Shown piece by piece: positions 3,652 to 21,805 of a stretch of 64,000 nucleotides of DNA; positions within the stretch are counted from its first letter, which is position 1; every line of letters begins with the position of its first letter. The position numbers and the translations under genes are program-made. The notes under the pieces are model-generated. The model was not told the DNA's origin and searched no databases. It worked only from the letters and a program-made list of their open reading frames with translations. Origin of the DNA: a virus (lineage: Duplodnaviria > Caudoviricetes); the IMG/VR virus record IMGVR_UViG_3300048858_000027, positions 1-64,000 of that record; one strand, 5' to 3'.

Positions 3652-5269
3652 CATTAAGATTTCGCAGCTTCCGGCGGCATCACCTTTCAACGGCAGCGAA
3701 TCCCTTCTGGGTGTTCAAGGTGGCGAGACCAAGCAGTTCCAGGTCGATGACCTGGTGGCTCCTCTTGCCTCGCAAGTCCTGCAGGACGTGCCTGTCCGTT
3801 CGGTGCCGAAGAAGGTCTCACGGGCCTTCTCGGTCAAGGATCTCGCTGGCTTCGTTGCAGCATGGATGGGCAGCGACAGCATCTGGCGGCTGAGGGGCTT
3901 GCGGATGCTGACCGCCAGCAGCGAGGGTATGCCCTTCTACGACACCGCTGGTGCGCTGCTGATGCGGCTGCGCAGCGGCGCGGTGGACTTGCCGGGTAGC
4001 AGCCAGGCGCAGACCTCGCGCCATGCCTGGAGCGTGCGCGACACGACTGGCTTCCTGGCTGCGTGGGTGGACCATCTGGGCATCTTCCGCGCTGGTGCCC
4101 TGACGGCGAAGAAGGGCACGCTGTCGCGTCTGACGGTGCCACACCCGGTAACGGGCCAGCTTGCCCTGTTCGATGTCGAGGGCACGGCCATCAGGTTGGC
4201 TGGCGTGCGCTATCAGCCGATCCTTGACACACCTGGCAAGCCTGTGTTCCGCCTGAAAGATGAGTACGGCTTTGTGGCCGGCTACATCGACAGGAACGGC
4301 GTCGGCCACGGCGTCTATGCTGCAGGGGGTGGAGGTGTCGCTGTGGCACATCCGCCGATGGTGCTGGAGGTAGTCTCCAGCACCCGGCTGCACCTGCACA
4401 TCCAGGGCAGCAAGGGCGGGGCTCGCTACATCTCGTTCGACATCAGGAATGTGCCCAACCCTGGTAAGAACAGTGATGTCTGGCGCGTGCATTTTGCCCA
4501 TGACAGCACCCGCAGCAATTCCGGCGCCTTCTCGCTGGGAAAGCAGATCCTGATCGAAGGTGAGCAGGAGTTTGCTGTGAAGCCGCGCGGCTCCATCAAC
4601 TTCATCGGCGGCAATGCGCACGGCAATGAGGAGAAGTTCTCCTTCTATGCTCTCGCGGACGGTGTGCCAGTTGATCTGTCCACGCAGACCAAGATCGTCT
4701 GTGACCGCTTCGAGATGGTCCAGGGCTCACGCGGCTACCGGCCAGGTGCCACGACTGAGACGACATGGGCGCCGAAGGGCGACCACATCATGGATCTGCA
4801 GCGGACCTGGCAGTTCACCCGCGCCGATGGCGGTGCCCGCTGGGTGCTGACCAACCGGGTCAAGATGCTGGCTGACCTGGCCTTTGGCGGCTACGGCGAC
4901 CTCAGCGGCCCATCCTACTTCGCCATGGCCTGCATGGCGCGCGCGCTGGACGATGGCACGGTCGTCAGCAACACGGCGGCATGGGAACCTGACTGGCAGC
5001 CGGCCGATGTGAGCCAGGATGGCTTTGCGACGCAGACCACCACCCAGGCCAGCGCCATCCGCCTTTGGGGACCGAACGGCTGGGCACTGGTGATGCGCTG
5101 GCTCAAGGGCTGGGATCAGCCGAAGCGCGAGGTCTACGTCTCCAACCGTGCGGGCATGAACAAGCTCTACCACAATTTCTTTGGCGGCACCGACGCGGCG
5201 CCCGTGACGGTGCAAGCCGGCGACACCTTCGAGGGTGTTGTCGAATACCTCTTCTCCAACAGCAACTGA
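3644..5269 (+). CDS. Virion fibre/spike-like structural protein
   Basis: N-terminal MADIKISQLPAA... anchor motif typical of phage fibre proteins; three internal DxxGF(V/L)A repeats; beta-rich C-terminus. Confidence 0.55.
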   Translation: MADIKISQLPAASPFNGSESLLGVQGGETKQFQVDDLVAPLASQVLQDVPVRSVPKKVSRAFSVKDLAGFVAAWMGSDSIWRLRGLRMLTASSEGMPFYDTAGALLMRLRSGAVDLPGSSQAQTSRHAWSVRDTTGFLAAWVDHLGIFRAGALTAKKGTLSRLTVPHPVTGQLALFDVEGTAIRLAGVRYQPILDTPGKPVFRLKDEYGFVAGYIDRNGVGHGVYAAGGGGVAVAHPPMVLEVVSSTRLHLHIQGSKGGARYISFDIRNVPNPGKNSDVWRVHFAHDSTRSNSGAFSLGKQILIEGEQEFAVKPRGSINFIGGNAHGNEEKFSFYALADGVPVDLSTQTKIVCDRFEMVQGSRGYRPGATTETTWAPKGDHIMDLQRTWQFTRADGGARWVLTNRVKMLADLAFGGYGDLSGPSYFAMACMARALDDGTVVSNTAAWEPDWQPADVSQDGFATQTTTQASAIRLWGPNGWALVMRWLKGWDQPKREVYVSNRAGMNKLYHNFFGGTDAAPVTVQAGDTFEGVVEYLFSNSN

Positions 5270-5279
5270 GGAGCCACCC

Positions 5280-6017
5280 ATGGGCGTGGACATGATCGTC
5301 TCCGGCGCTGACTTCTCGGCGTCCGGCATCTTTGACCCGCCGGTCGATGCGGATTGGAAGCTGTGGCTCTATCCGCAGAATCTGACCAAGGCGGCGCAGA
5401 ACCTCATTGATGGCGGTGGAGGTGTAACCCTCACTGGCTCGCCAACTGAGGTGCCAAGTGGTGTCAAGCTGAAGTCACTGACCAACAGCCTGGACACCAC
5501 CATCGCTGAACAGGTGGTGCAGAGCTGGATCATGGTCTGCAAGGCGGATCAGGACACCACCGTTCCGGCGCAGGTGCCTTGCTTCATGGGCAGCTATGGC
5601 TCGGTCAATGGGAACACCGTGGGCGCCATGGTCAGTCCTTATGCGGCTGGCCGGATCTATTTCACCTGGAGTGAGGTCGCTAACGGCGTCTACGCCCAGC
5701 AGCGCATCGGCCACCCTGCCGTGCAGGACATCAGCCAGCACCGCTTCTACGCCGCAGTCTCGGACGGGGTGAACTACGCCTTCTACGATAAGTCGGCGGG
5801 CCTTACCTATACGACAACCCGCCCTGGCACCACCCGCGCGCTGGGCACTGGTCTTCCGATCAGGGTCGGGTCGCGCTGGAGCGGCACGGCATATGGCGAG
5901 AGCAGCCACGTATTCGATGCGGTCTGCAACACGGCACTCACCGCAGGGGATGTCGATGTTCTCTACAAGGCGGTGAAAGCATACCTCGCCTCGCTGACCA
6001 CCCCGATCGCGATCTGA
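5280..6017 (+). CDS. Putative lectin/concanavalin-like virion protein
   Basis: Start reassigned to ATG 5280 after GAGGAG; beta-rich with HRFYAAVSDG and LPIRVGSR segments resembling LamG/ConA folds. Confidence 0.45.
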   Translation: MGVDMIVSGADFSASGIFDPPVDADWKLWLYPQNLTKAAQNLIDGGGGVTLTGSPTEVPSGVKLKSLTNSLDTTIAEQVVQSWIMVCKADQDTTVPAQVPCFMGSYGSVNGNTVGAMVSPYAAGRIYFTWSEVANGVYAQQRIGHPAVQDISQHRFYAAVSDGVNYAFYDKSAGLTYTTTRPGTTRALGTGLPIRVGSRWSGTAYGESSHVFDAVCNTALTAGDVDVLYKAVKAYLASLTTPIAI

Positions 6018-6053
6018 CGCAATCTCCGCGCAAGCTGACCACGGAGTCCCATC

Positions 6054-6230
6054 ATGCCCACCCCCATCATCGCCGCGATCATCCGCCACGGGCTTCAGGT
6101 CGCCGCCGGTAGCCTGCTGACCCAGGGCGTCATCTCTGACGGCAACATTGAACTGGCTGCAGGCGCGCTGGCGACCTTGGTGTCCGTGGTCTGGGAGATT
6201 TACTCCAAGCGCAAGGAGACCAAGCAGTGA
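6054..6230 (+). CDS. Putative holin (58 aa)
   Basis: Read manually: MPTPIIAAIIRHGLQVAAGSLLTQG...WEIYSKRKETKQ; two hydrophobic segments, basic C-terminus, overlaps the lysozyme start. Confidence 0.7.
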   Translation: MPTPIIAAIIRHGLQVAAGSLLTQGVISDGNIELAAGALATLVSVVWEIYSKRKETKQ

Positions 6231-11875: not shown

Positions 11876-12776
11876 CCTCACCGCATTCAACAACCAGCGC
11901 TTCGCTGCGTCGAAGATCCTCCAGAAAGCCATCCTGGAGCGGGTCGTCCTCGCGGTTGAGGCGCGGTCTACGGCTGTCGCCTTCGCGGTCCAGAAGGCCG
12001 CCAACCAGACGGTCGATCGCTTCTTCAGTGATCTCGTGACCTATATGGGGAAGGAGGCAGATCTTGCCTCCCAGATTGGCGGCATCGCGCGCCCGTGGAA
12101 TCCACTCAACGCGAAGTACGTGCTCCAGAAGGGCACCAGCGCCTACTGGCTCTACAGCAAGGCACCCCGCATCGCTGGTGGGCAGAAGGCGCGCGCCGCG
12201 CGCAACGCCAAGGTCGCTCGTCTGCGGAAGGGAAAAGCCGGCCCAGACCTGATGACGGAACTGAGGCGGGTGAAGGGTCTGGATATCCTCGGAGCACCCT
12301 CGGTGAGCGTGACCCTGGAAGATCGTGAAGCCCGCATCAAGCAAGAGGCGAAGGCCAAGGCAAGCCGCAGCGGTCGGTTCCTGCGGAATTACGACCTCAC
12401 CGTCTACCGCTACGCTGCCGTGAAGGTCGCAGAGATCTCGATCAGCCTCTGGGGCATGGTCGATCGCGCCAGCACCATGGGCCAAACCCTGGCAGGCCCG
12501 CGGCGCCGGTCAATCCCTCGCAGGCGCAACTTCGCGAACATCGAGAGCGAGATGGCAGCGAAGGGCGCCATCACGCAGAAGGCCCGTGACAAGCTGGTCA
12601 GTCGTAGCCGCGGGCGCTGGGGAACAGGCGCCAGGCGGCCTCACCGCCCTCTGATCCAACCGTTCATCCAGTATTATGCAACGGTCAAAATACCAAACAT
12701 GGTTCGGGCTGTAACCCAGGCCAAGTTCGGCGGTATCACCGCAGGCAACTATCCCACGAGGGCGCCGAGAAAATGA
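11859..12776 (+). CDS. Putative tail-completion/neck protein
   Basis: Basic 305-aa protein between head closure and tail terminator positions. Confidence 0.45.
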   Translation: MAKPTNLTAFNNQRFAASKILQKAILERVVLAVEARSTAVAFAVQKAANQTVDRFFSDLVTYMGKEADLASQIGGIARPWNPLNAKYVLQKGTSAYWLYSKAPRIAGGQKARAARNAKVARLRKGKAGPDLMTELRRVKGLDILGAPSVSVTLEDREARIKQEAKAKASRSGRFLRNYDLTVYRYAAVKVAEISISLWGMVDRASTMGQTLAGPRRRSIPRRRNFANIESEMAAKGAITQKARDKLVSRSRGRWGTGARRPHRPLIQPFIQYYATVKIPNMVRAVTQAKFGGITAGNYPTRAPRK

Positions 12777-13222
12777 TGATCAAGTATAAGCCGCTCCGCC
12801 TGAGCGTGATTCGCTTCATCAAGCAGATCGCAGCAGACTTCATGGCGAAGCATCCAGGTTCGCAGATCGAGTTCGTGGACCTGGACGCTGTGGAAGATCT
12901 GGAGAAGCTGCCAGCAGCGGACTGTATGGGCCTGTCCGCCTTCGCGCTTCAGCCCGACGAGAATATGGCGGATGTGTTCTTCGCGGTGGCGCTGAGCACC
13001 TGGAGTGACCCGGACAACCTGCGCCTGATCGACATGGTGGACCTGGCCTGTGACTACCTGCTGCCAGGCTGCAAGGTGGAAGTGTGGTCCGCTGATCCGG
13101 CGACCAACCCACCGAGCGGCTTCATGGTCGTGGCCAACGACACGTCCATCGACCCGGTGGACCGCGACGGCCACCGGGCCATCCAGTTCATCAACCTGCG
13201 ACTGAAGCCGATTGCTCGCTGA
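12773..13222 (+). CDS. Putative tail terminator
   Basis: Acidic 149-aa protein immediately before the tail-tube genes. Confidence 0.5.
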   Translation: MMIKYKPLRLSVIRFIKQIAADFMAKHPGSQIEFVDLDAVEDLEKLPAADCMGLSAFALQPDENMADVFFAVALSTWSDPDNLRLIDMVDLACDYLLPGCKVEVWSADPATNPPSGFMVVANDTSIDPVDRDGHRAIQFINLRLKPIAR

Positions 13223-13415
13223 GGCCCCGCGTCTGCTTCTCCTGAAGCGCGCGGAGAGCCTCACGGTCGTAGTATTCGGAGGTTTCGAGAGCTGACCGCA
13301 ACAGGAAAATCACTTCCTGATTGAAGCTCCGGTGATGCGTGATAGACCGGAGCTTCAAGATCCGAAACAGATCTTCCTCAATGCGGATGCTGTGACTGAT
13401 AAAAGGCATGATCAC
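13191..13415 (-). CDS. Arc-like ribbon-helix-helix DNA-binding protein
   Basis: SHSIRIEEDLFRILKLRSITHHRSFNQEVIFLLRSAL matches the Arc/Mnt pattern (RSxNxEI..L). Confidence 0.75.
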   Translation of the reverse strand: MIMPFISHSIRIEEDLFRILKLRSITHHRSFNQEVIFLLRSALETSEYYDREALRALQEKQTRGLSEQSASVAG

Positions 13416-13428
13416 TAATTCCAGGGTT

Positions 13429-13466
13429 TTGATTCGTTTCCCATTTTCACTATAAAAAAGTTATAG
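13429..13466 (+). promoter_or_regulatory. Putative promoter/operator between the arc-like gene and the first tail-tube paralog
   Basis: TTGATT-16-TATAAA; inverted repeat CTATAA-N5-TTATAG (13450-13466) overlaps the -10; resembles the late motif. Confidence 0.45.
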
Positions 13467-13484
13467 AGCAAGGAGTTTCAAGAG

Positions 13485-14354
13485 ATGAGCGCAGGCACTG
13501 CCCGCACCAACAAGTTCCTCATCTCTGCAGGCACGGTCCTGCTGGGAATGCCGAACGAGCTGTGGGATCTGACGCCTGAGAAGCACAGCCTTGGTCTCGT
13601 CAAGAACGTCCGCCTGATTACCGAGCCCGACCACACGGTGCTGTCGGGCAACGGCCGGGGTAAAGGGAACATCGCGTCGAACGCCTCGACGCTGAATGCC
13701 TCCATCTCCATGGAGGTGCATGAAGTCACCTCCCGCAACATCGCCTACGCTCTGGGGTTGGAGGGGCGCTCCTTCCAAGAGAGTGCCCCAGGGTATCGGA
13801 CAACGCTGATGCTGGATGACACCAGCACCGTGTCCTTCAAGGCGCCCACCGATGTCACGGCGGAGTTTCCTGTTGGCTCTTGGATCATGATCCAGGATCC
13901 GCTTGAGCCTGACGTTGTGCATCATGCTCAGGTAAGCGGCGCCAGCCAGGTCAATGGTGATCATAATGTCACCTTCACGGACCACCCCATTCCTGCAGGT
14001 AGCTACATCCAGCCGGGGGCTTTGGTGAGGCGGGTCAGCATGTTGCACATGTCCGAGCCGCAGCAACCGTTCTTCTCGATGAAGATCACAGGTGAACTGA
14101 CCAACCACGAGCCGATCTCGATCATCTGCCCGAAGGTGCGGATCAAGAAGGGCTTCTCCCTGGCGGTGAGCCTGGACAACTACGCCTCGCTCCCCTTCGT
14201 GGTCGCCCCGCATGACCTGCTGCCGCAGGATGCCTTCTATCCCATGTTCCGCAGGAACGGGCCGATCATGATCACCTCCAGGCACAATGAGCCGAACAGG
14301 CTCACTCTGGACAGCTTGAGGTCATTGTGGTCCTCGACTTCCATCCGGTTCTGA
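13485..14354 (+). CDS. Tail tube protein paralog
   Basis: Aligns by eye over its full length with 14437..15267 (LWDL.P..HS.GLVKN; FPVG.W.MIQD; QPFF..K; PK.RI..GFS; DLLPQD.FY). Confidence 0.8.
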   Translation: MSAGTARTNKFLISAGTVLLGMPNELWDLTPEKHSLGLVKNVRLITEPDHTVLSGNGRGKGNIASNASTLNASISMEVHEVTSRNIAYALGLEGRSFQESAPGYRTTLMLDDTSTVSFKAPTDVTAEFPVGSWIMIQDPLEPDVVHHAQVSGASQVNGDHNVTFTDHPIPAGSYIQPGALVRRVSMLHMSEPQQPFFSMKITGELTNHEPISIICPKVRIKKGFSLAVSLDNYASLPFVVAPHDLLPQDAFYPMFRRNGPIMITSRHNEPNRLTLDSLRSLWSSTSIRF

Positions 14355-14361
14355 TTGTTCG

Positions 14362-14373
14362 CTAATTAAAAGG
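14362..14373 (+). promoter_or_regulatory. Putative late-promoter motif CTAATTAAAAGG
   Basis: Shared motif upstream of the major tail tube gene. Confidence 0.5.
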
Positions 14374-14436
14374 AACGGACCTTCCGTGCATGACCTCATA
14401 GGTTGCAGCAGACATTTCTGCACCTAGGAGCTACCA

Positions 14437-15267
14437 ATGGCTGGTGAGGCACGTTCCTCCAGTTTCATGTTGGGGACTGCGACCGTCATGATCGGTCCCC
14501 AGAACGCGCTGTGGGATCTGCGTCCTGATCAGCACAGCATCGGTCTCGTGAAGAACTTCCAGGTCAGCTCCGAGCCGACCTACGTGGATCTGACGCAGGG
14601 CGCCAAGGGCACCACCGTCTATTCGGTGATGACCTCGAACCCCGTCCGGGCGCAGATGGAAGTCTACGAATACAGCGCCAAGAACCTGGCCTATGGTCTG
14701 GGTCTGGACGGCTCCGCGCTGGCCCCGGCTGGCTCCGTCTACAACACCGCTGCCGCCGTCCAGGGTAACGCCACGCCTGTGACGACGATCACCTTCATCT
14801 CCGCCACGAACGTCGCTACCGACTTCCCAGTCGGCGCCTGGGTGATGATCCAGGATGTGACGATCCCGGACGTGGTGCATTACGCGCAGCTCACCCTCGC
14901 GACGGCCACCACGGGCACGGCGCCGACCATCACGCACACGCTGACCTTCGCCAACCATGGCCTGAAGGATGGCTACAACTTCCCGGCTGGTTCGCGCGTC
15001 CAGGTGGTGAATCGTGTGGATGTCGGTTCCCCGGCCGAGCAGCCCTTCTTCGCTGCCAAGGTGCTGGCCGTGATGCCGGAGGCCAACAAGCCGGTGGCCC
15101 TGATGTTCCCGAAGATCCGCATCACCCGCGGCTTCTCGATGAGCTTCACCACCGAGAACTTCGCGAACCTGCCCTACCAGTTCACGCCCTTCGACCTGCT
15201 GCCGCAGGACCCGTTCTACTCCACGTTCCGCGACAAGGGCGGTGCCACCTTGATGACCCCGACCTGA
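14437..15267 (+). CDS. Major tail tube protein
   Basis: Strong codon bias, AGGAG RBS, strong terminator downstream, precedes chaperones and tape measure. Confidence 0.85.
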   Translation: MAGEARSSSFMLGTATVMIGPQNALWDLRPDQHSIGLVKNFQVSSEPTYVDLTQGAKGTTVYSVMTSNPVRAQMEVYEYSAKNLAYGLGLDGSALAPAGSVYNTAAAVQGNATPVTTITFISATNVATDFPVGAWVMIQDVTIPDVVHYAQLTLATATTGTAPTITHTLTFANHGLKDGYNFPAGSRVQVVNRVDVGSPAEQPFFAAKVLAVMPEANKPVALMFPKIRITRGFSMSFTTENFANLPYQFTPFDLLPQDPFYSTFRDKGGATLMTPT

Positions 15268-15288
15268 AGCGGGGAAGTCGAAGGGAAG

Positions 15289-15317
15289 AAGCCCGCCTCG
15301 AAAGAGGCGGGCTTTTT
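15289..15317 (+). terminator. Rho-independent terminator after tail tube
   Basis: AAGCCCGCCTC-GAAA-GAGGCGGGC-TTTTT. Confidence 0.9.
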
Positions 15318-15410
15318 CTATTAGTCACTAATACAGATTGCACAAGTTCCTTGAAGCGCCCAGCTCGTGGCCTGTAGAGAATAATAACAACTCCGCTTCA
15401 GGAACATATA

Positions 15411-15797
15411 ATGACTGATAAGTTTCCCGACCACATCATCGTCAACGTGAACGGTCAGCAGAAGTCGGTTCTGATGAGCTTCGGACTGATCCACGAACTG
15501 ATGAAGATCGTCTCGGACGTGACGGACGTTCAGATGCTGCTGCTGGACCCGAAGATGCAGGAAACGGCGCTGGGCGTCGTCTTCGCGGAGCGCAACGAGC
15601 GTGGAGAGGAAACCCGCCGGCCCGGCCTGCATGAGCTGAACCTGTCCGTTGCCGACGCGACCAAGGTGCTGAAGTGGGTGGCGGCCCATGTCCTGGATTT
15701 TTTTCTCACCGGGATCGAGGCGTCAGTGGAGACGCTCCAACCGCAGGAGGCACGCCTGAAAGGCTTGATGCCCTCTGGCGGTGGTTCTCCGGCCTAA
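15411..15797 (+). CDS. Tail assembly chaperone (G-like)
   Basis: Between tail tube and tape measure; overlapped by an open -1 frame. Confidence 0.7.
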   Translation: MTDKFPDHIIVNVNGQQKSVLMSFGLIHELMKIVSDVTDVQMLLLDPKMQETALGVVFAERNERGEETRRPGLHELNLSVADATKVLKWVAAHVLDFFLTGIEASVETLQPQEARLKGLMPSGGGSPA

Positions 15798-16081
15798 GCT
15801 GGTCTGAGGCGGTGTGCTGGGCGTTCGACACCGCGCCCAGCCGCCTCCCGATCGTCTTCTGGGCACACAGCCATAACGATCTTCAGACCAAGGTTCGCCT
15901 GAAGATCGGACATGAGCAGGCCAAGGTCATCCAGGACTTCCAGACCATGGCCCAGATTCTGAGCGCCGCTTTCGGCGGCGGCGGAAAGAGCAGCGGGTCG
16001 GCCCCTTCGGGTGATGTCGCGAAACCTCAGTCGGTCGAGGAGTTGCAGGCCGCCATGACCAACGTGTTCGGGATGCGCTAA
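15674..16081 (+). CDS. Tail assembly chaperone T-like segment, probably expressed by -1 frameshift; true start uncertain
   Basis: Open in the -1 frame relative to 15411; ends 1 nt before the tape measure ATG. Confidence 0.55.
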   Translation: MGGGPCPGFFSHRDRGVSGDAPTAGGTPERLDALWRWFSGLSWSEAVCWAFDTAPSRLPIVFWAHSHNDLQTKVRLKIGHEQAKVIQDFQTMAQILSAAFGGGGKSSGSAPSGDVAKPQSVEELQAAMTNVFGMR

Positions 16082-19000
16082 ATGGCCAACGAAGACCCTA
16101 TCAACATCCCGGTAACGGTATCCCTTGGGGATACTGGCTCTCAGGTCGAGAACCTGTCTCGGAAGATCGAAAGTCTGACGAGGCAGGTAGACAGCCTGGG
16201 TGGGGTCTTCGACCGGCTTGGTAAAGGTCAGAAGGGTCTTCAGGACACACTCGGCAAGCTGACCCAGATCCAGAAGGTTCTGGCCACGCCGAATGCCGAA
16301 GTGGGTCTCCTCAACGCGGTGAAGCGGGCCGCGGACCAGACCAAGAAGGCGCTGGACGAACTCCCGGTCCAGCGCCTGATGGCTGGAGGCCAGCAGGGTC
16401 TCGGGCGCATCGTCGCGAACACGGCGCGCTCGAACGATCCGGCCGCCGTCGCCTCGGCACAGGAAGTCGCTCGTCGTCAGGTAGCGGAACGCACCCTGAC
16501 GGTTGCGCAGCTTGAGGGCGCACGGGCGGCTACCAACAATGCGACCGAGATCAAGGATCTCACGCGGCAGATCAACGCGGCGAACAAGCAGCTCGGAGAT
16601 TGGTCCAAGCGCCTGGAGGGCATCAACGCCCGCATGGCGCAGATCGACAGTGATCTGAAGGTCCAGAAGGGCGTCACCAATCGGGTGCGCGGCCTGGAGA
16701 TCGACCGCCAGTTCCAGGCCACGGCTGAATACCAGGCCCGGATCGCCCGCCGCGCGTCTGAGCAACAGGCACGCGAGACCCAGCGCCAGTCGATCGAGGC
16801 CGATCGGCTCAACACCCGCATTCGTGCCAACACCCTGGGGGCGCCCCGCGCCCGCGATCAGGGCACGATGGAGGGGCTGGAATCCAACTCCCGCCTCCTG
16901 AGCCGGGATGACTACCGCCGTATGGTGGTCCAGAACGGCGTGGCGCGTGGGCTGCTGAACCAGCAGACCAGCGAAGCCCTCCTGGCCAACCCCGAGGGCT
17001 TCTCGCAGGGTGTGACCCTGGGCGTCATGCGTCGGAAGATGCAGGACGCGATCAAAGCGGCGGTCCAGACGCCGTTCGAGGAATGGTCGAAAGCCCTCGA
17101 AACTCTTGGGTCCGTCCGCACCGCCCGCACCCAGTGGCAGGCTCGCCTCGCTGACATCAAGCAGAGCACCGAAGCACAGCGGCTGGAAGAGGTCGCGGTG
17201 CGGGCGGCCGAGACCCGCGCCAACCTGCTGGCCAACAACACCCGGTATCGGACGGCTCAGATCAACGGCGGCGCTGCCAGCCAGCAGCTCAGCCAGGAGG
17301 CCCTGCTCCAGAACCTCCGCAACCCGGCCTATGTGTCGGGGCGCGAGTTCGCCGCGGCGCAGGGGCAGCGGATCAACAACGCCGCCTCCCTGCGGAACTA
17401 TAACGACCCTGATGCTGTCAATGAGATGGTGCGTCTCAGCCTGGCGCGTCAGCGGGCGAACAACCGCAGCCAGCGCGCGCTCATGGACGACCCGGAGCTG
17501 GCCGCTGAGACCCGGAGCATCTCCAGCGCCAAGACGATGGATCGTCTGACGGGCGACGGCGGTGCCACGCTGTTGAAGGTGCAGGGCATCCTGCTGCTGC
17601 ACTACACGCTGCTGAACAAGATTCAGAGCGTCTTCACCAACGCGGCGGGTGCGGTCGTCGCCTTCGACAACGAGCTGAAGCAGCTCCAGGCGATCTCCGC
17701 ATCCACCAACGGTGAGATGGAGGGTCTGCGGAAGACGATCCTGGATGTCTCCACAGGCACCAAGTTCTCGGCCACTGAGCTGACCGAGGCAGCCACGGCC
17801 ATGGCCCAGGCTGGTCTCTCGGCCCAGGACATCGGCTCGGCGCTGAAGGGCGTGAGCCTGCTGGCCACCGCCACGGGCACGGATTTGAAGACGGCGGTTG
17901 AGATCGCCACGACCTCTATGGGCGTCTTCAAGATGCGCGCCGATGAGATGCCCGGCATCGCCAACCAGATGACGGCAGCCCTGAACCTCTCCAAGCTGAG
18001 CGTGGAGCAGGTGGGTGTCGGCTTTCAGTATGTCGCCAACACCGCCGCTGAAGCGGGCCTGACCCTCACGGAAGTCACGGCCGCCATGGCAACCATGGCG
18101 AACCAGGGCATCCGCTCCGGTTCGACCATGGGCACTGGTATGCGCCAGCTCCTGATCGACCTTCAGAACCCATCCGAGGAGCTGACCAAGCGCATCCACC
18201 AGCTCGGGCTCGGCATGTCGGACATCGACGTGCGCGCCAACGGCCTGTCGGGCGTCCTGCAGAACCTGCGCAACGCAGGCTTCACGTCCGCTGACGCCTT
18301 CGCCACGATCGAGGTCCGCGCCGCGGCGGCTTTCACCGCCCTCTCTCGCGGCCAGGCTGACCTGACCAGCCTGACCCAAGGCATCCTGGAGGCGGATGGT
18401 GCCGCCAAGGCGAACGCTGTGCAGATGGAGAGCCTGGCGAACAAGGCGCTCCAGCTCGGCAACGTCATCGTGTCCCTGGCTGCCTCGGCCGCCGAGCCGC
18501 TGATGACGGCTCTGAAGGGCGTCGTCGGCGGGCTGACTGAGGTTCTCGGGCTTATCGACCCGAACAGCACCGCCCTGAAGGTGTTCGGCACGGTCGCCGC
18601 TGCCGTGGCAACGGGCGGCCTGGTGATCTGGCTAGGCCGGCTGGCGGTGAACCTCGTCAGCCTGCCGACCCTCCTCGGCGCGGCGCGCGGTGCAGTCCTC
18701 AGCTTCCAGATCGCGACTTCCAGCGCCACCGGAGCCTCGGTCGCCCTCGGATCCGCCATGAAGGCCATCCCGTTCCTGGCGATCGCAGGCGCCATCGGTG
18801 GCGTGATCACCTACATGGCGACCTATAAGAGCGAAGCCGATCTGGCTGCTGCCAAGAACGAGAAGCTGGCGGAGGCGGTCAACACCGCGAAGGCTGCCGT
18901 CGAGGACAAGAAGCAGAGCCTCGACAGCCTGGACCAGTTCCTCAACACGGTCATTGGCCGCACCGAGCAGCTCAGCCGGAACGAGGAGGAACTGAACCGG

Positions 19001-21805
19001 GTCATCCTCCAGGCACGGGACCGCTTCGGCAGCCTCTCGTCCACCATCTACGACCACATTGGCACCCTGGGTGAACTGGTCGCCAAGATCCGGGAGGTGC
19101 GGGCCGAGCTGCGTGGTGCGGCGCTGAACGATCTTCAGACCTTCCGTGAGACCCTCACCGCCCAGATCGAAGGGCTGCGGACCAATGTGGAGAACGCAGC
19201 GAACCAGAGGGCGCTGGCTCCTGTCCTGAGCGCCTTCGGCGTGCGCCGTGGTTTCCAGGGCCGTGACGTGGACACGATCATGGGTCAGCTCCCCGAGGGG
19301 GTGCGGGGCAACGAGAGCATTCGCCGCGCGCTGGAGATCGTCGGAGGCGCTGGCGCCGAGACCGTCACCGACGACAAGGGCAACAGCACCTATCGGGTGG
19401 ATCTGCTGGATATCCAGAAGATCCGTCAGCAGATCGGGGAGATGAAGGATCTGCCCGAGGCCCAGCGCAAGGCGTTGCAGGAGGCTCTCGGTGGGGTTGC
19501 CAGCAGCCGCTCGCGCCTGACCCAGACCCAGAACACGCTCTCGTCCACCGACCGCCAGATTCGGCAGGAGCAGTATAAGGGAACGCCGGAGTACCGCCGG
19601 GCCGAGGAGATCGTCTCCGCGCTCCGCGAACTGAACAGCACGACCCCGACCTTCGACAAGTTCAAGACCGAGGCGGAGCGTCAGCAGGCGGCGGAGGAAT
19701 ACAAGAAGCGCGCCAACCCCCTCCAGGCCGAATACGCCAAGCTGGCGGAGACCGCCCGCGGCCAGGGCATGTCCTTCGACGACCTGGGCATCGGCGCTGA
19801 TTACAGCAGCGTTAGCGGGGCCTTCACGACGCGGATGCGGCAGTTCGGCGAGGATGTGCGGCAGAACGCCATCGACCTCGCGACCGCCGAGGTCAGCGCG
19901 ATCAACCGCCAGGTCCAGCAGATCACCACCTCGCTGAAGGGCCAGGCCAGCGCCAAAGCGGCCCGTGACGCGCAGGCCGACATCGGCAGGCTCATGGACC
20001 GTGAGCTGGAAATTGAGCTGAAGAAGAATGAGCAGGATGTCGAGAAGGAGTTCAAGAACCGTCCGGTCGATGTCCGCCAGAGGATCCTGAGCGAGCGCAA
20101 CGAAGCCGCCCGCTTCTCGAACCAGCAGGCCCGCGCGTCCGCGAACAACGCGGTCATCGACAACACCTCGCGCGAGATGCAGTCGTTCATCTCCGCGGAG
20201 CAGGACCGGCTGCGCACCTTGGTCCAGCGCAAGGGTCGCTCCGGGGGCACCCGTGGCGGAAGCGACGAGATCGCGGCCTCGCGGAACAAGATCGAGCAGA
20301 TGGTCCGCGAGCGTGGAGCCCTGGAAGGGTGGTCCTCCGAGGTCACTGAAGCGAACGTGCGCCGCGCCCTGGGCTCGTCGGAGCGGTCGGAATACAGCGC
20401 GAACCACTCGGGCTCCGCGCCCAAGCGCGACCCGAACCGCCCCTGGGATGTCGATGATCTCGACACCAAGCCGAACTTCTCGCGGCAGCTCTCGCAGATC
20501 AACAAGGAAGCCGAGACAGCCCTGAACGCGACCGAGTTGCCGATCCAGGCGCGCAAGGCTGAACTGGAAGCGGCCCGCCGGAACCCGAACATGTTCCCGC
20601 AGGCTTATTTCGACCAGCGCAACGAAGAGATCAACCAGATGCAGATCGCGGCAGATGCTGCCGAGGTCAAGATCAGGGAGACCCAGCTCGCACGCCTGGA
20701 GAGCTTGAAGACTGAGGCGCAGAACCGCCTGGCAGAAGTCGAGAAGCGCCTGGCTGACCTGGGCAATCCTGACGAGAAGCTGCGCACCTTCAAGACGGAG
20801 GAGGAGCGCAGCGATTACAGGAGCAGCTACACGCGCGCCCAGCGGGAGGTCGAGCAGCGGCGGCAGGAACTGGAGCAGATCGGCACCCAGAGCCGGCAGG
20901 TCACGACCGATCGCAACCGTGCGGCTGCGACAGGTGCTGCCCGCACCGCTTCAGGGGAACAGACCACCTGGGACGCCTTCACCGTCGCGGGTGACGACTT
21001 CAAGAAGAAGTTCGGTCTCGACGACAGCACGTCTGGCTTCAAGGAATGGGGCGACAACTTCACCAATGTCATGTCCACCATGCAGCAGGCGGCGGGTGGC
21101 TTCTTCACCGACTTCGTGACGGGCAATATGAAGGCGAGTCAAGCCATCAAGGGCTTCGCCAAGTCCGTGCTGACCAGCGTGGCTCAAATGGCGGCGAACA
21201 AGTTCGCAGCGCAGATGATCGGCCTCGGCATCAGCCTGATCTCCAGCCTCGGCGGCGCAGCCGCGGGCGGCGGATTCACCGACGCGGGCACCGCTGTCGG
21301 TGGCTCCACGATGTATGCCTATAACGGCGGCCCCGTGAAGCGTTTCGCTGCAGGAGGCAAGGTCCAGGGGACGCATCTCGGCCGCGATAGCGTGAAGGCC
21401 CTGCTGGCACCAGGCGAGGGCGTGCTGAACCGCCGCGCCATGGCGATCATCGGAGAGGAGGGTCTGGCCGCCCTGAACCGCGGCCAGGCTGTGGTTGAGC
21501 AGGCGCGCACGCGGGTCCGTCGCTACGAAGGTGGTAGCAGCCCGTTGGGTAGCACCATGCAGCAGCCTGCCTCTTCCCTGGTGGGGGCCGGAACCTTCGC
21601 CGGCATCAACAAGGCGGTGGGCAATATCCAGGGGGGCCTCAAGCCCGTCCCGACCCGCAAGCCCGATGAGGTGAATGTCTTCGTCATGGCGCCGGATCAG
21701 AAGCCCAGCCTGGGGCCGAAGGACGTGCTGGCCATCATCGGTGAGGACATCGCCACGGGCGGCAGCACCAAGAAGCTCATCAAGCAAGTGACGGTAGGAG
21801 CCTGA
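16082..21805 (+). CDS. Tape measure protein
   Basis: 1907 aa, Ala/Gln-rich helical, TP901-like core (TKFSATELTEAATAMAQAG), hydrophobic central segment, follows the chaperones. Confidence 0.92.
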   Translation: MANEDPINIPVTVSLGDTGSQVENLSRKIESLTRQVDSLGGVFDRLGKGQKGLQDTLGKLTQIQKVLATPNAEVGLLNAVKRAADQTKKALDELPVQRLMAGGQQGLGRIVANTARSNDPAAVASAQEVARRQVAERTLTVAQLEGARAATNNATEIKDLTRQINAANKQLGDWSKRLEGINARMAQIDSDLKVQKGVTNRVRGLEIDRQFQATAEYQARIARRASEQQARETQRQSIEADRLNTRIRANTLGAPRARDQGTMEGLESNSRLLSRDDYRRMVVQNGVARGLLNQQTSEALLANPEGFSQGVTLGVMRRKMQDAIKAAVQTPFEEWSKALETLGSVRTARTQWQARLADIKQSTEAQRLEEVAVRAAETRANLLANNTRYRTAQINGGAASQQLSQEALLQNLRNPAYVSGREFAAAQGQRINNAASLRNYNDPDAVNEMVRLSLARQRANNRSQRALMDDPELAAETRSISSAKTMDRLTGDGGATLLKVQGILLLHYTLLNKIQSVFTNAAGAVVAFDNELKQLQAISASTNGEMEGLRKTILDVSTGTKFSATELTEAATAMAQAGLSAQDIGSALKGVSLLATATGTDLKTAVEIATTSMGVFKMRADEMPGIANQMTAALNLSKLSVEQVGVGFQYVANTAAEAGLTLTEVTAAMATMANQGIRSGSTMGTGMRQLLIDLQNPSEELTKRIHQLGLGMSDIDVRANGLSGVLQNLRNAGFTSADAFATIEVRAAAAFTALSRGQADLTSLTQGILEADGAAKANAVQMESLANKALQLGNVIVSLAASAAEPLMTALKGVVGGLTEVLGLIDPNSTALKVFGTVAAAVATGGLVIWLGRLAVNLVSLPTLLGAARGAVLSFQIATSSATGASVALGSAMKAIPFLAIAGAIGGVITYMATYKSEADLAAAKNEKLAEAVNTAKAAVEDKKQSLDSLDQFLNTVIGRTEQLSRNEEELNRVILQARDRFGSLSSTIYDHIGTLGELVAKIREVRAELRGAALNDLQTFRETLTAQIEGLRTNVENAANQRALAPVLSAFGVRRGFQGRDVDTIMGQLPEGVRGNESIRRALEIVGGAGAETVTDDKGNSTYRVDLLDIQKIRQQIGEMKDLPEAQRKALQEALGGVASSRSRLTQTQNTLSSTDRQIRQEQYKGTPEYRRAEEIVSALRELNSTTPTFDKFKTEAERQQAAEEYKKRANPLQAEYAKLAETARGQGMSFDDLGIGADYSSVSGAFTTRMRQFGEDVRQNAIDLATAEVSAINRQVQQITTSLKGQASAKAARDAQADIGRLMDRELEIELKKNEQDVEKEFKNRPVDVRQRILSERNEAARFSNQQARASANNAVIDNTSREMQSFISAEQDRLRTLVQRKGRSGGTRGGSDEIAASRNKIEQMVRERGALEGWSSEVTEANVRRALGSSERSEYSANHSGSAPKRDPNRPWDVDDLDTKPNFSRQLSQINKEAETALNATELPIQARKAELEAARRNPNMFPQAYFDQRNEEINQMQIAADAAEVKIRETQLARLESLKTEAQNRLAEVEKRLADLGNPDEKLRTFKTEEERSDYRSSYTRAQREVEQRRQELEQIGTQSRQVTTDRNRAAATGAARTASGEQTTWDAFTVAGDDFKKKFGLDDSTSGFKEWGDNFTNVMSTMQQAAGGFFTDFVTGNMKASQAIKGFAKSVLTSVAQMAANKFAAQMIGLGISLISSLGGAAAGGGFTDAGTAVGGSTMYAYNGGPVKRFAAGGKVQGTHLGRDSVKALLAPGEGVLNRRAMAIIGEEGLAALNRGQAVVEQARTRVRRYEGGSSPLGSTMQQPASSLVGAGTFAGINKAVGNIQGGLKPVPTRKPDEVNVFVMAPDQKPSLGPKDVLAIIGEDIATGGSTKKLIKQVTVGA

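Follow-up and report, generated by a model that had tools for sequence, protein, structure and literature searches.

In phage SPP1 (gp17.1 and gp17.1*) and in tubes of the lambda gpV type, the tail-tube subunit occurs in two forms, the rarer of which carries extra C-terminal residues. Separate second genes are likewise on record: T5 p140 derives from a duplicated tube gene, forms one ring under the last pb6 ring, and touches the p132 collar with its C terminus (PMC10038345), and the actinobacteriophages of clusters AU, AM, BI, CC, DJ, EL, and AW carry two paralogous major tail protein genes (bioRxiv 10.1101/2020.01.10.891226; PMC11080557). Here we describe a tandem pair of tail-tube genes, hereafter copy 1 and copy 2, together with the small antisense gene that faces them, in IMG/VR virus record IMGVR_UViG_3300048858_000027, of which the stretch analyzed (the window) comprises the first 64 kb of 80,943 bp. 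We favor, at a probability of roughly 0.5, a reading in which the pair is a tandem duplicate of the major tube gene and copy 1 provides a less abundant, minor virion subunit with a tube fold. The features on which this reading draws are, in window coordinates:

13485..14354, plus strand: copy 1, a divergent tail-tube paralog of 289 aa with a 24-aa C-terminal extension (AlphaFold2 model, Foldseek, sequence searches)
14437..15267, plus strand: copy 2, the orthodox major tail-tube gene, 276 aa (relatives, phrog_28493, codon adaptation index (CAI), Foldseek)
13191..13415, minus strand: Arc-like ribbon-helix-helix gene, 74 aa from a GTG start or 72 aa from the ATG at 13409 (Pfam, ortholog profile)
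13416..13484, no strand: putative divergent control region, AT-rich (33% GC, inverted repeat, motif, ribosome-binding site (RBS))
14355..14436, no strand: spacer between the copies, with motif CTAATTAAAAGG at 14362-14373 and RBS TAGGAG at 14425-14430
15284..15325, plus strand: intrinsic terminator after copy 2, with a 16-bp stem, a GAAA loop, and a U-run (fold energy)

The two genes are full-length paralogs, as the initial annotation had stated: their products share 37% identity over ~268 residues (E 2e-64), and both match phrog_28493, a family without a function name, at 176 bits for copy 1 and 289 bits for copy 2. A profile of the 132-member family, both copies included, matches the ‘Tail tube’ of Acinetobacter phage Mystique (9n71, six chains listed with one sequence) at E 1.9e-63. 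The same structure leads the Foldseek results for both predicted models, with 9n71_A retrieved by copy 1 (predicted local distance difference test (pLDDT) 90.9) at E 1.3e-21 and template modeling (TM) scores of 0.76/0.82, and by copy 2 (pLDDT 81.7) at E 5.3e-13 and TM scores of 0.64/0.66; the next matches of copy 1 are 8xkn (‘tail tube protein’) and the tube or major tail proteins of SPR, JBD30, Chi, and YSD1. The pair follows the capsid and head-tail genes and directly precedes the tape-measure chaperone and tape measure genes, the surrounding gene order is the same as in Achromobacter phage 2-1 and Caulobacter phage Seuss, and the chaperone pair at 15411..16081 fixes the tube position of the two genes. 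Because of the profile match to 9n71, the top-ranking fold match to 9n71_A, and this gene position, we conclude that copy 1 and copy 2 both encode tail-tube proteins.

Copy 2 is the orthodox major tube gene. We found 741 relatives of it, the best of which is 66% identical, and its codon usage (GC content at third codon positions (GC3) 0.87, CAI 0.80) is close to that of the major capsid gene (CAI 0.83). The late-type motif, the strong RBS, and the terminator that had been ascribed to it were all located: CTAATTAAAAGG begins at 14362, TAGGAG precedes the start codon, and the terminator hairpin folds at -31.8 kcal/mol (z -5.18), with 0 of 200 shuffled sequences folding equally well. Seuss has an annotated terminator at the equivalent position.

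Copy 1 differs from copy 2 in its weaker codon bias, an earlier observation that the recalculated values bear out, with a CAI of 0.625 and a GC3 of 0.81. Other structural genes mostly have CAI values of 0.58-0.77, with a single outlier at 0.45; copy 1 thus lies within the structural-gene range, which fits a product of lower abundance. Its own start is also preceded by a strong RBS (AAGGAG, 13470-13475), and its C-terminal extension of 24 residues is modeled with low confidence.

The position of copy 1 within the locus can be read from the antisense gene upstream of it. This gene lies back-to-back with copy 1 and appears to be of Arc type, as initially proposed: its product scores below the Pfam cut-offs for both the FitA-like ribbon-helix-helix family (E 4.6e-4, 20.5 bits against a cut-off of 27) and Arc itself (E 0.095, 13.0 bits against 20.4), positional orthologs in locus L007 and in Achromobacter phage 2-1 exceed the latter (21.8 and 24.1 bits), and a profile built from the positionally equivalent open reading frames (ORFs) of relatives retrieves it at E 1e-13. 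Achromobacter phage JWF, a cultured relative like 2-1, carries the orthologous gene as well. To measure how widespread the arrangement is, we counted antisense ORFs of 45-110 aa starting at most 260 nt from the tube gene in those related loci with enough upstream sequence; the locus set was drawn from among the matches listed and does not contain the closest relatives. Of the 131 loci covered in this way, 106 have such an ORF before the tube gene; almost all of these loci contain just one tube gene. On visual inspection, most of the 84 distinct sequences have the pattern of one beta strand and then two helices, and a strict pattern filter accepts 41 of them. Both the Arc-like gene and the AT-rich region are therefore ancestral in the family, the gene itself lying outside the duplication, and, since the same gene stands before the only tube gene of most relatives, copy 1 occupies the ancestral tube position. 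The Arc-like protein probably controls tail-gene expression.

The 3' end of the Arc-like gene overlaps the 3' end of the preceding 12773-13222 gene by 32 nt (13191-13222), and convergent overlaps of ~30 nt recur in L007 (4704-4738) and L010 (4695-4723). With this tail-to-tail arrangement present in three phages, transcripts of the Arc-like gene and of its upstream neighbor would be mutually antisense, and the overlap could possibly act as a built-in brake between the head and tail gene blocks.

The intergenic region at 13416-13484 has 33% GC, compared with 62% for the whole window. The initial annotation had described it as an AT-rich, promoter-like region with an inverted repeat that belongs to copy 1; the description holds, but the region is no special property of copy 1, being part of the ancestral layout. 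It contains a sigma-70-like element (TTGATT, a 16-nt spacer, and TATAAA, 13429-13456) on which a sigma-70 scan made no call because the -10 hexamer ends in A, and an imperfect inverted repeat of 11 nt (13445-13455/13461-13471, 82% complementarity) that overlaps the -10-like element and is a fair candidate for an operator of the Arc-like protein. The motif variant CTATAAAAAAGT at 13450-13461 overlaps both. The relaxed form of the motif, CTAWWWAAWAGK, is found only four times in forward orientation in the 80.9-kb genome, ahead of the portal gene (1971), the protease/scaffold gene (6668), copy 1 (13450), and copy 2 (14362), compared with zero for the reversed control pattern; a stricter form has three sites. 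Because both copies carry a version of the same element, the upstream signal appears to have been duplicated along with the gene. Two of the sites, 1971 and 13450, are palindromes (CCTATT-T-AATAGG and CTATAA-N5-TTATAG), and the motif could mark binding sites of the Arc-like protein rather than a promoter. In L087, the closest relative available (its tube protein is 58% identical to copy 2, and the 812 nt of downstream sequence present contain no second tube gene), CTAT/ATAG palindromes occur in the same spacer.

These signals do not establish the separate regulation of copy 1 that the initial annotation had proposed, as both copies carry the relaxed motif and no terminator separates them. On the plus strand of the spacer we found no terminator, and the spacer folds like its shuffled versions (z -1.06), so that transcripts begun before copy 1 should enter copy 2 and end after it.

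Taken together, the proposal of a minor tube subunit stands as the best remaining reading. According to this reading, the major tail-tube gene would have been duplicated in tandem, with copy 2 supplying the major tube protein, from which the hexameric tail rings are built, and copy 1 retaining the ancestral slot directly after the conserved antisense Arc-like gene. Copy 1 would have evolved 3-4 times faster while selection kept the gene intact. Both copies would probably be transcribed rightward from the motif-bearing regions, with transcripts begun before copy 1 reading through copy 2 and halting at the terminator. Copy 1 protein would then be made in smaller amounts and enter the virion as a minor tube-fold subunit, either scattered among copy 2 subunits or assembled into a specialized ring, as in the case of T5 p140.

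Duplication of the tube gene has happened more than once in this family, with the gene doubled or tripled in at least three other places. L007 carries a tandem pair with 56% identity, L093 starts with the end of one tube copy followed by a full one, and for each of the sister sequences P0019, P0024, and P0025 (~71% identity) a single contig is listed, with the same maximum length of 14,046 bp. A fourth case may be the extended P0124 (317 aa) and the orthodox P0034, which are 36% identical and are listed with five contigs each and the same 75,976-bp maximum; for this pair as for the triplet, co-occurrence is read from identical contig listings alone. In our trees, the members of the L007 pair and those of the P0019 triplet group with their respective close relatives and therefore represent independent duplication events; the recurrence of duplication in the family argues that a second tube gene is useful. 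In P0025, 90 aa with repeats of a G-x-I/V-x-C-V-like cysteine motif are added at the C terminus and may provide some of the tube subunits with a display or adhesion module.

The origin of copy 1 itself could differ from a local duplication. In the tree it falls within the same well-supported subfamily as copy 2 but outside the tight clade of the latter, and it groups with four long-branched, C-terminally extended proteins, P0122, P0124, P0125, and P0127, with a support of 82 in the Shimodaira-Hasegawa-like approximate likelihood ratio test (SH-aLRT) and of 96 in a smaller tree. Copy 1 might accordingly represent an older, long-form tube lineage, inherited or acquired by recombination, a possibility to which the apparent coexistence of P0124 with an orthodox, 36% identical partner lends further weight. 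Against it, the approximately unbiased (AU) test on a 34-row tree does not reject copy 1 and copy 2 as sisters (p 0.46), long-branch attraction is a likely cause of the grouping, and the conserved tail of the four long forms finds no similarity in the C-terminal tail of copy 1 (score -1.1). Copy 1 may therefore be either a local duplicate with accelerated evolution or a member of an older paralog lineage, and we regard the latter as unlikely, if the best placed of the alternatives. The four long forms themselves (297-317 aa) share a basic C-terminal tail of approximately L-x-T/L-R-x-G-x-x-x-L/V-R-x-G-x-x-L-x-V-R that is absent in orthodox members, and they may constitute a distinct long-form paralog subfamily; scans of viral and genome contigs for long-form proteins returned nothing useful.

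Next in order, and improbable in our estimate, is the view of copy 1 as a redundant duplicate, a drifting leftover of the tandem event that will eventually be lost. Its terminal branch is indeed long, at 1.18 changes per column compared with 0.32 for copy 2 (0.94 and 0.29 in the smaller tree), and its best relative among 1.84 billion representatives is at most 41% identical; word-index and viral-contig searches retrieved nothing beyond copy 1 itself, so that no search yielded an ortholog. The weaker codon adaptation and the single tube gene of most relatives point in the same direction. However, the reading frame runs through 289 codons without a stop or frameshift despite the divergence to 37% identity, and the gene retains 81-87% of the columns conserved at 80-90% among the 132 family members, which places it at about the 14th percentile of members. 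Its deviations at conserved columns are conservative only (L>I, A>G, M>L, Q>N, V>I, T>S, G>S, F>V), and the high GC3, the strong RBS, and the confidently predicted fold also speak against drift. In a near-identical strain from an independent soil run, copy 1 has 1 substitution and 0 indels across the ~780 nt covered by contigs, and the covered parts of copy 2 have 4 changes, 3 of them synonymous. Copy 1 is thus intact and constrained, and the decay that the initial annotation had considered is not seen.

In a third scenario, which we hold to be rather remote, copy 1 encodes an alternative tube, such that conditions would decide whether the tail consists mainly of copy 1 or of copy 2, and the Arc-like protein would set this balance through the promoter next to copy 1. 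The divergent orientation of the Arc-like gene, the inverted repeat overlapping the -10-like element before copy 1, and the differences between the two upstream motifs would suit such a switch. The same Arc-like gene and intergenic layout, however, precede the only tube gene in most relatives, which indicates regulation of the tube or tail operon in general; furthermore, no terminator insulates copy 2 from transcription through copy 1, and the codon adaptation of copy 1 is unlike that of a major protein.

Least probable is the proposal that copy 1 is an immune decoy, a non-assembling look-alike that titrates a host sensor of tube protein (for example, a DSR2-type sirtuin). Copy 1 does evolve rapidly, a common trait of counter-defense genes, and its second- and third-ranking Foldseek matches, 8xkn_B (‘tail tube protein’) and 8ygm_A (‘The cryo-EM Structure of SPR’), are tube chains of the phage whose tube triggers DSR2, but copy 1 keeps the positions conserved in the family, sits inside the structural operon, and has no feature that speaks for a decoy, and PADLOC, which covers defense proteins only, gave zero matches. 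Of the precedent invoked for it, the sensing of tail-tube protein by DSR2 and its blockage by a phage protein are documented in the available excerpts of two reports (PMC10981675, PMC11087589); in these excerpts, the known inhibitor DSAD1 is described only as a separate phage protein and not as a tube paralog, and none of the known decoys is a tube paralog. Should copy 1 nevertheless be a fast-evolving anti-sensor look-alike, or an alternative subunit switched by the Arc-like regulator, rather than a building block, a combined case that we also consider very improbable, it would be a naturally occurring case of a decoy or variant of a structural protein in the arms race between phage and host.

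The parent record has direct terminal repeats and is rated complete, and the phage is a JWF/Seuss-like, 81-kb siphovirus from soil. The three sequencing runs listed with window DNA are soil metagenomes, two of which may be the source of this DNA, and no RNA run is among them. The tube gene matches Achromobacter phages JWF and 2-1, Caulobacter phage Seuss, Xylophilus phage Lumi, Pseudoalteromonas phage KB12-38, and an Acinetobacter phage group including Mystique, which copy 1 reaches in tblastn with E 9e-13. All phages matched are siphoviruses of ~80 kb, each record having a single matching place. When the region was compared with GenBank phages by megablast, no match was obtained. The genes flanking the pair are:

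12773..13222, plus strand: last gene of the head/neck block, 149 aa (ORF list; same-position homologs in many related loci)
15411-15797, plus strand: tape-measure chaperone G (phrog_37198, E 1.5e-17; ORF list)
15674-16081, plus strand: -1 frame extension of the chaperone, ending exactly at the tape measure start (ORF list)
15698-15704, plus strand: T-run slippery site T TTT TTT, inside the overlap of both chaperone ORFs (sequence)
16082..21805, plus strand: tape measure protein, 1907 aa (ORF list; synteny with the annotated tape measure genes of 2-1 and Seuss)

The T-run at 15698-15704 is likely a programmed frameshift site of the G/GT type, and Seuss has an annotated slippage. In the near-identical strain, the 387-nt chaperone gene (15411-15797) has 11 differences, 4 of them non-synonymous, a concentration suggestive of a local hot spot or of recombination in this patch. 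Elsewhere in the family, L134-L138, two of which come from human gut metagenome records, carry an insertion of ~120 residues in the middle of the tube gene (5001-6137) that is probably an added decoration domain, and P0101, P0102, P0120, and P0121 (383-393 aa), whose alignments span only 60-74% of copy 2, may belong to this type. L009 (5899-7049) and L010 (5881-6893) have ~1.2 kb of extra genes between the tube and chaperone genes, comprising an ORF of 250-290 aa and a small signal-peptide-like ORF.

Several observations weigh against a minor virion subunit. About 135 related loci among the matches listed have one tube gene, and this tail design can therefore do without copy 1. The identity between copy 1 and copy 2 is 40%, 33%, and 42% by thirds of the protein, the core included, and such even divergence means that co-assembly with copy 2 is not assured, all the more as the two copies of L007 differ mostly in their middle region. 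The sole strain difference in copy 1, P23S, is non-synonymous, the differences being too few to measure selection. Lastly, the resemblance to T5 p140 is partial. Both are diverged tube duplicates with a tube fold, and p140 is used as a low-copy structural ring; p140, however, has lost its decoration domain, lies among baseplate genes, and is 9% identical to pb6, whereas copy 1 keeps its middle domain, aligns with copy 2 along its whole length, and adjoins the tube gene. Given the retained decoration domain and a location outside the baseplate genes, we did not class copy 1 as p140-like.

The other precedents delimit the minor-subunit reading of copy 1 in different ways. In the SPP1 and lambda type, the two subunit forms stem from one gene by frameshifting or domain addition and share an identical core, whereas the window has two genes at 37% identity, with a 24-residue extension on one product. 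The actinobacteriophage clusters are likewise siphoviruses with two paralogous major tail protein genes, a feature conserved across clusters; they infect different hosts and may belong to a different tube family, their genes are nonadjacent (18 and 23, or 17 and 19), and the pair is a cluster-wide trait, in contrast to the tandem and, within its family, sporadic pair of the window. The Mystique tail tube belongs to the same protein family and has the same fold as both copies, but is only 23-24% identical, is encoded by one tube gene, and lacks an antisense gene before it.

For the Arc-like gene, the nearest parallel is the immI region of P22 (arc, mnt, ant), which is embedded in the late operon. 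Both cases place small ribbon-helix-helix regulators inside a structural gene block; in the window, however, there is no ant-like target gene, and the regulator gene runs antisense, extends into the end of its upstream neighbor, and faces the tube gene. As a family-wide element that splits the head and tail blocks in most relatives, this gene is the most general and useful by-product of the analysis, and it is relevant to a phage group in which a plasmid-like or temperate state is suspected. With two-tube-gene phages already published, the pair itself is an ordinary though tidy case of a known kind: second tube genes recur in long-tailed phages, and the window adds a cleanly defined example in a family with a solved tube structure, whose several duplications make it a reasonable place to test for special rings, altered tail surfaces, and roles in coping with host defenses.

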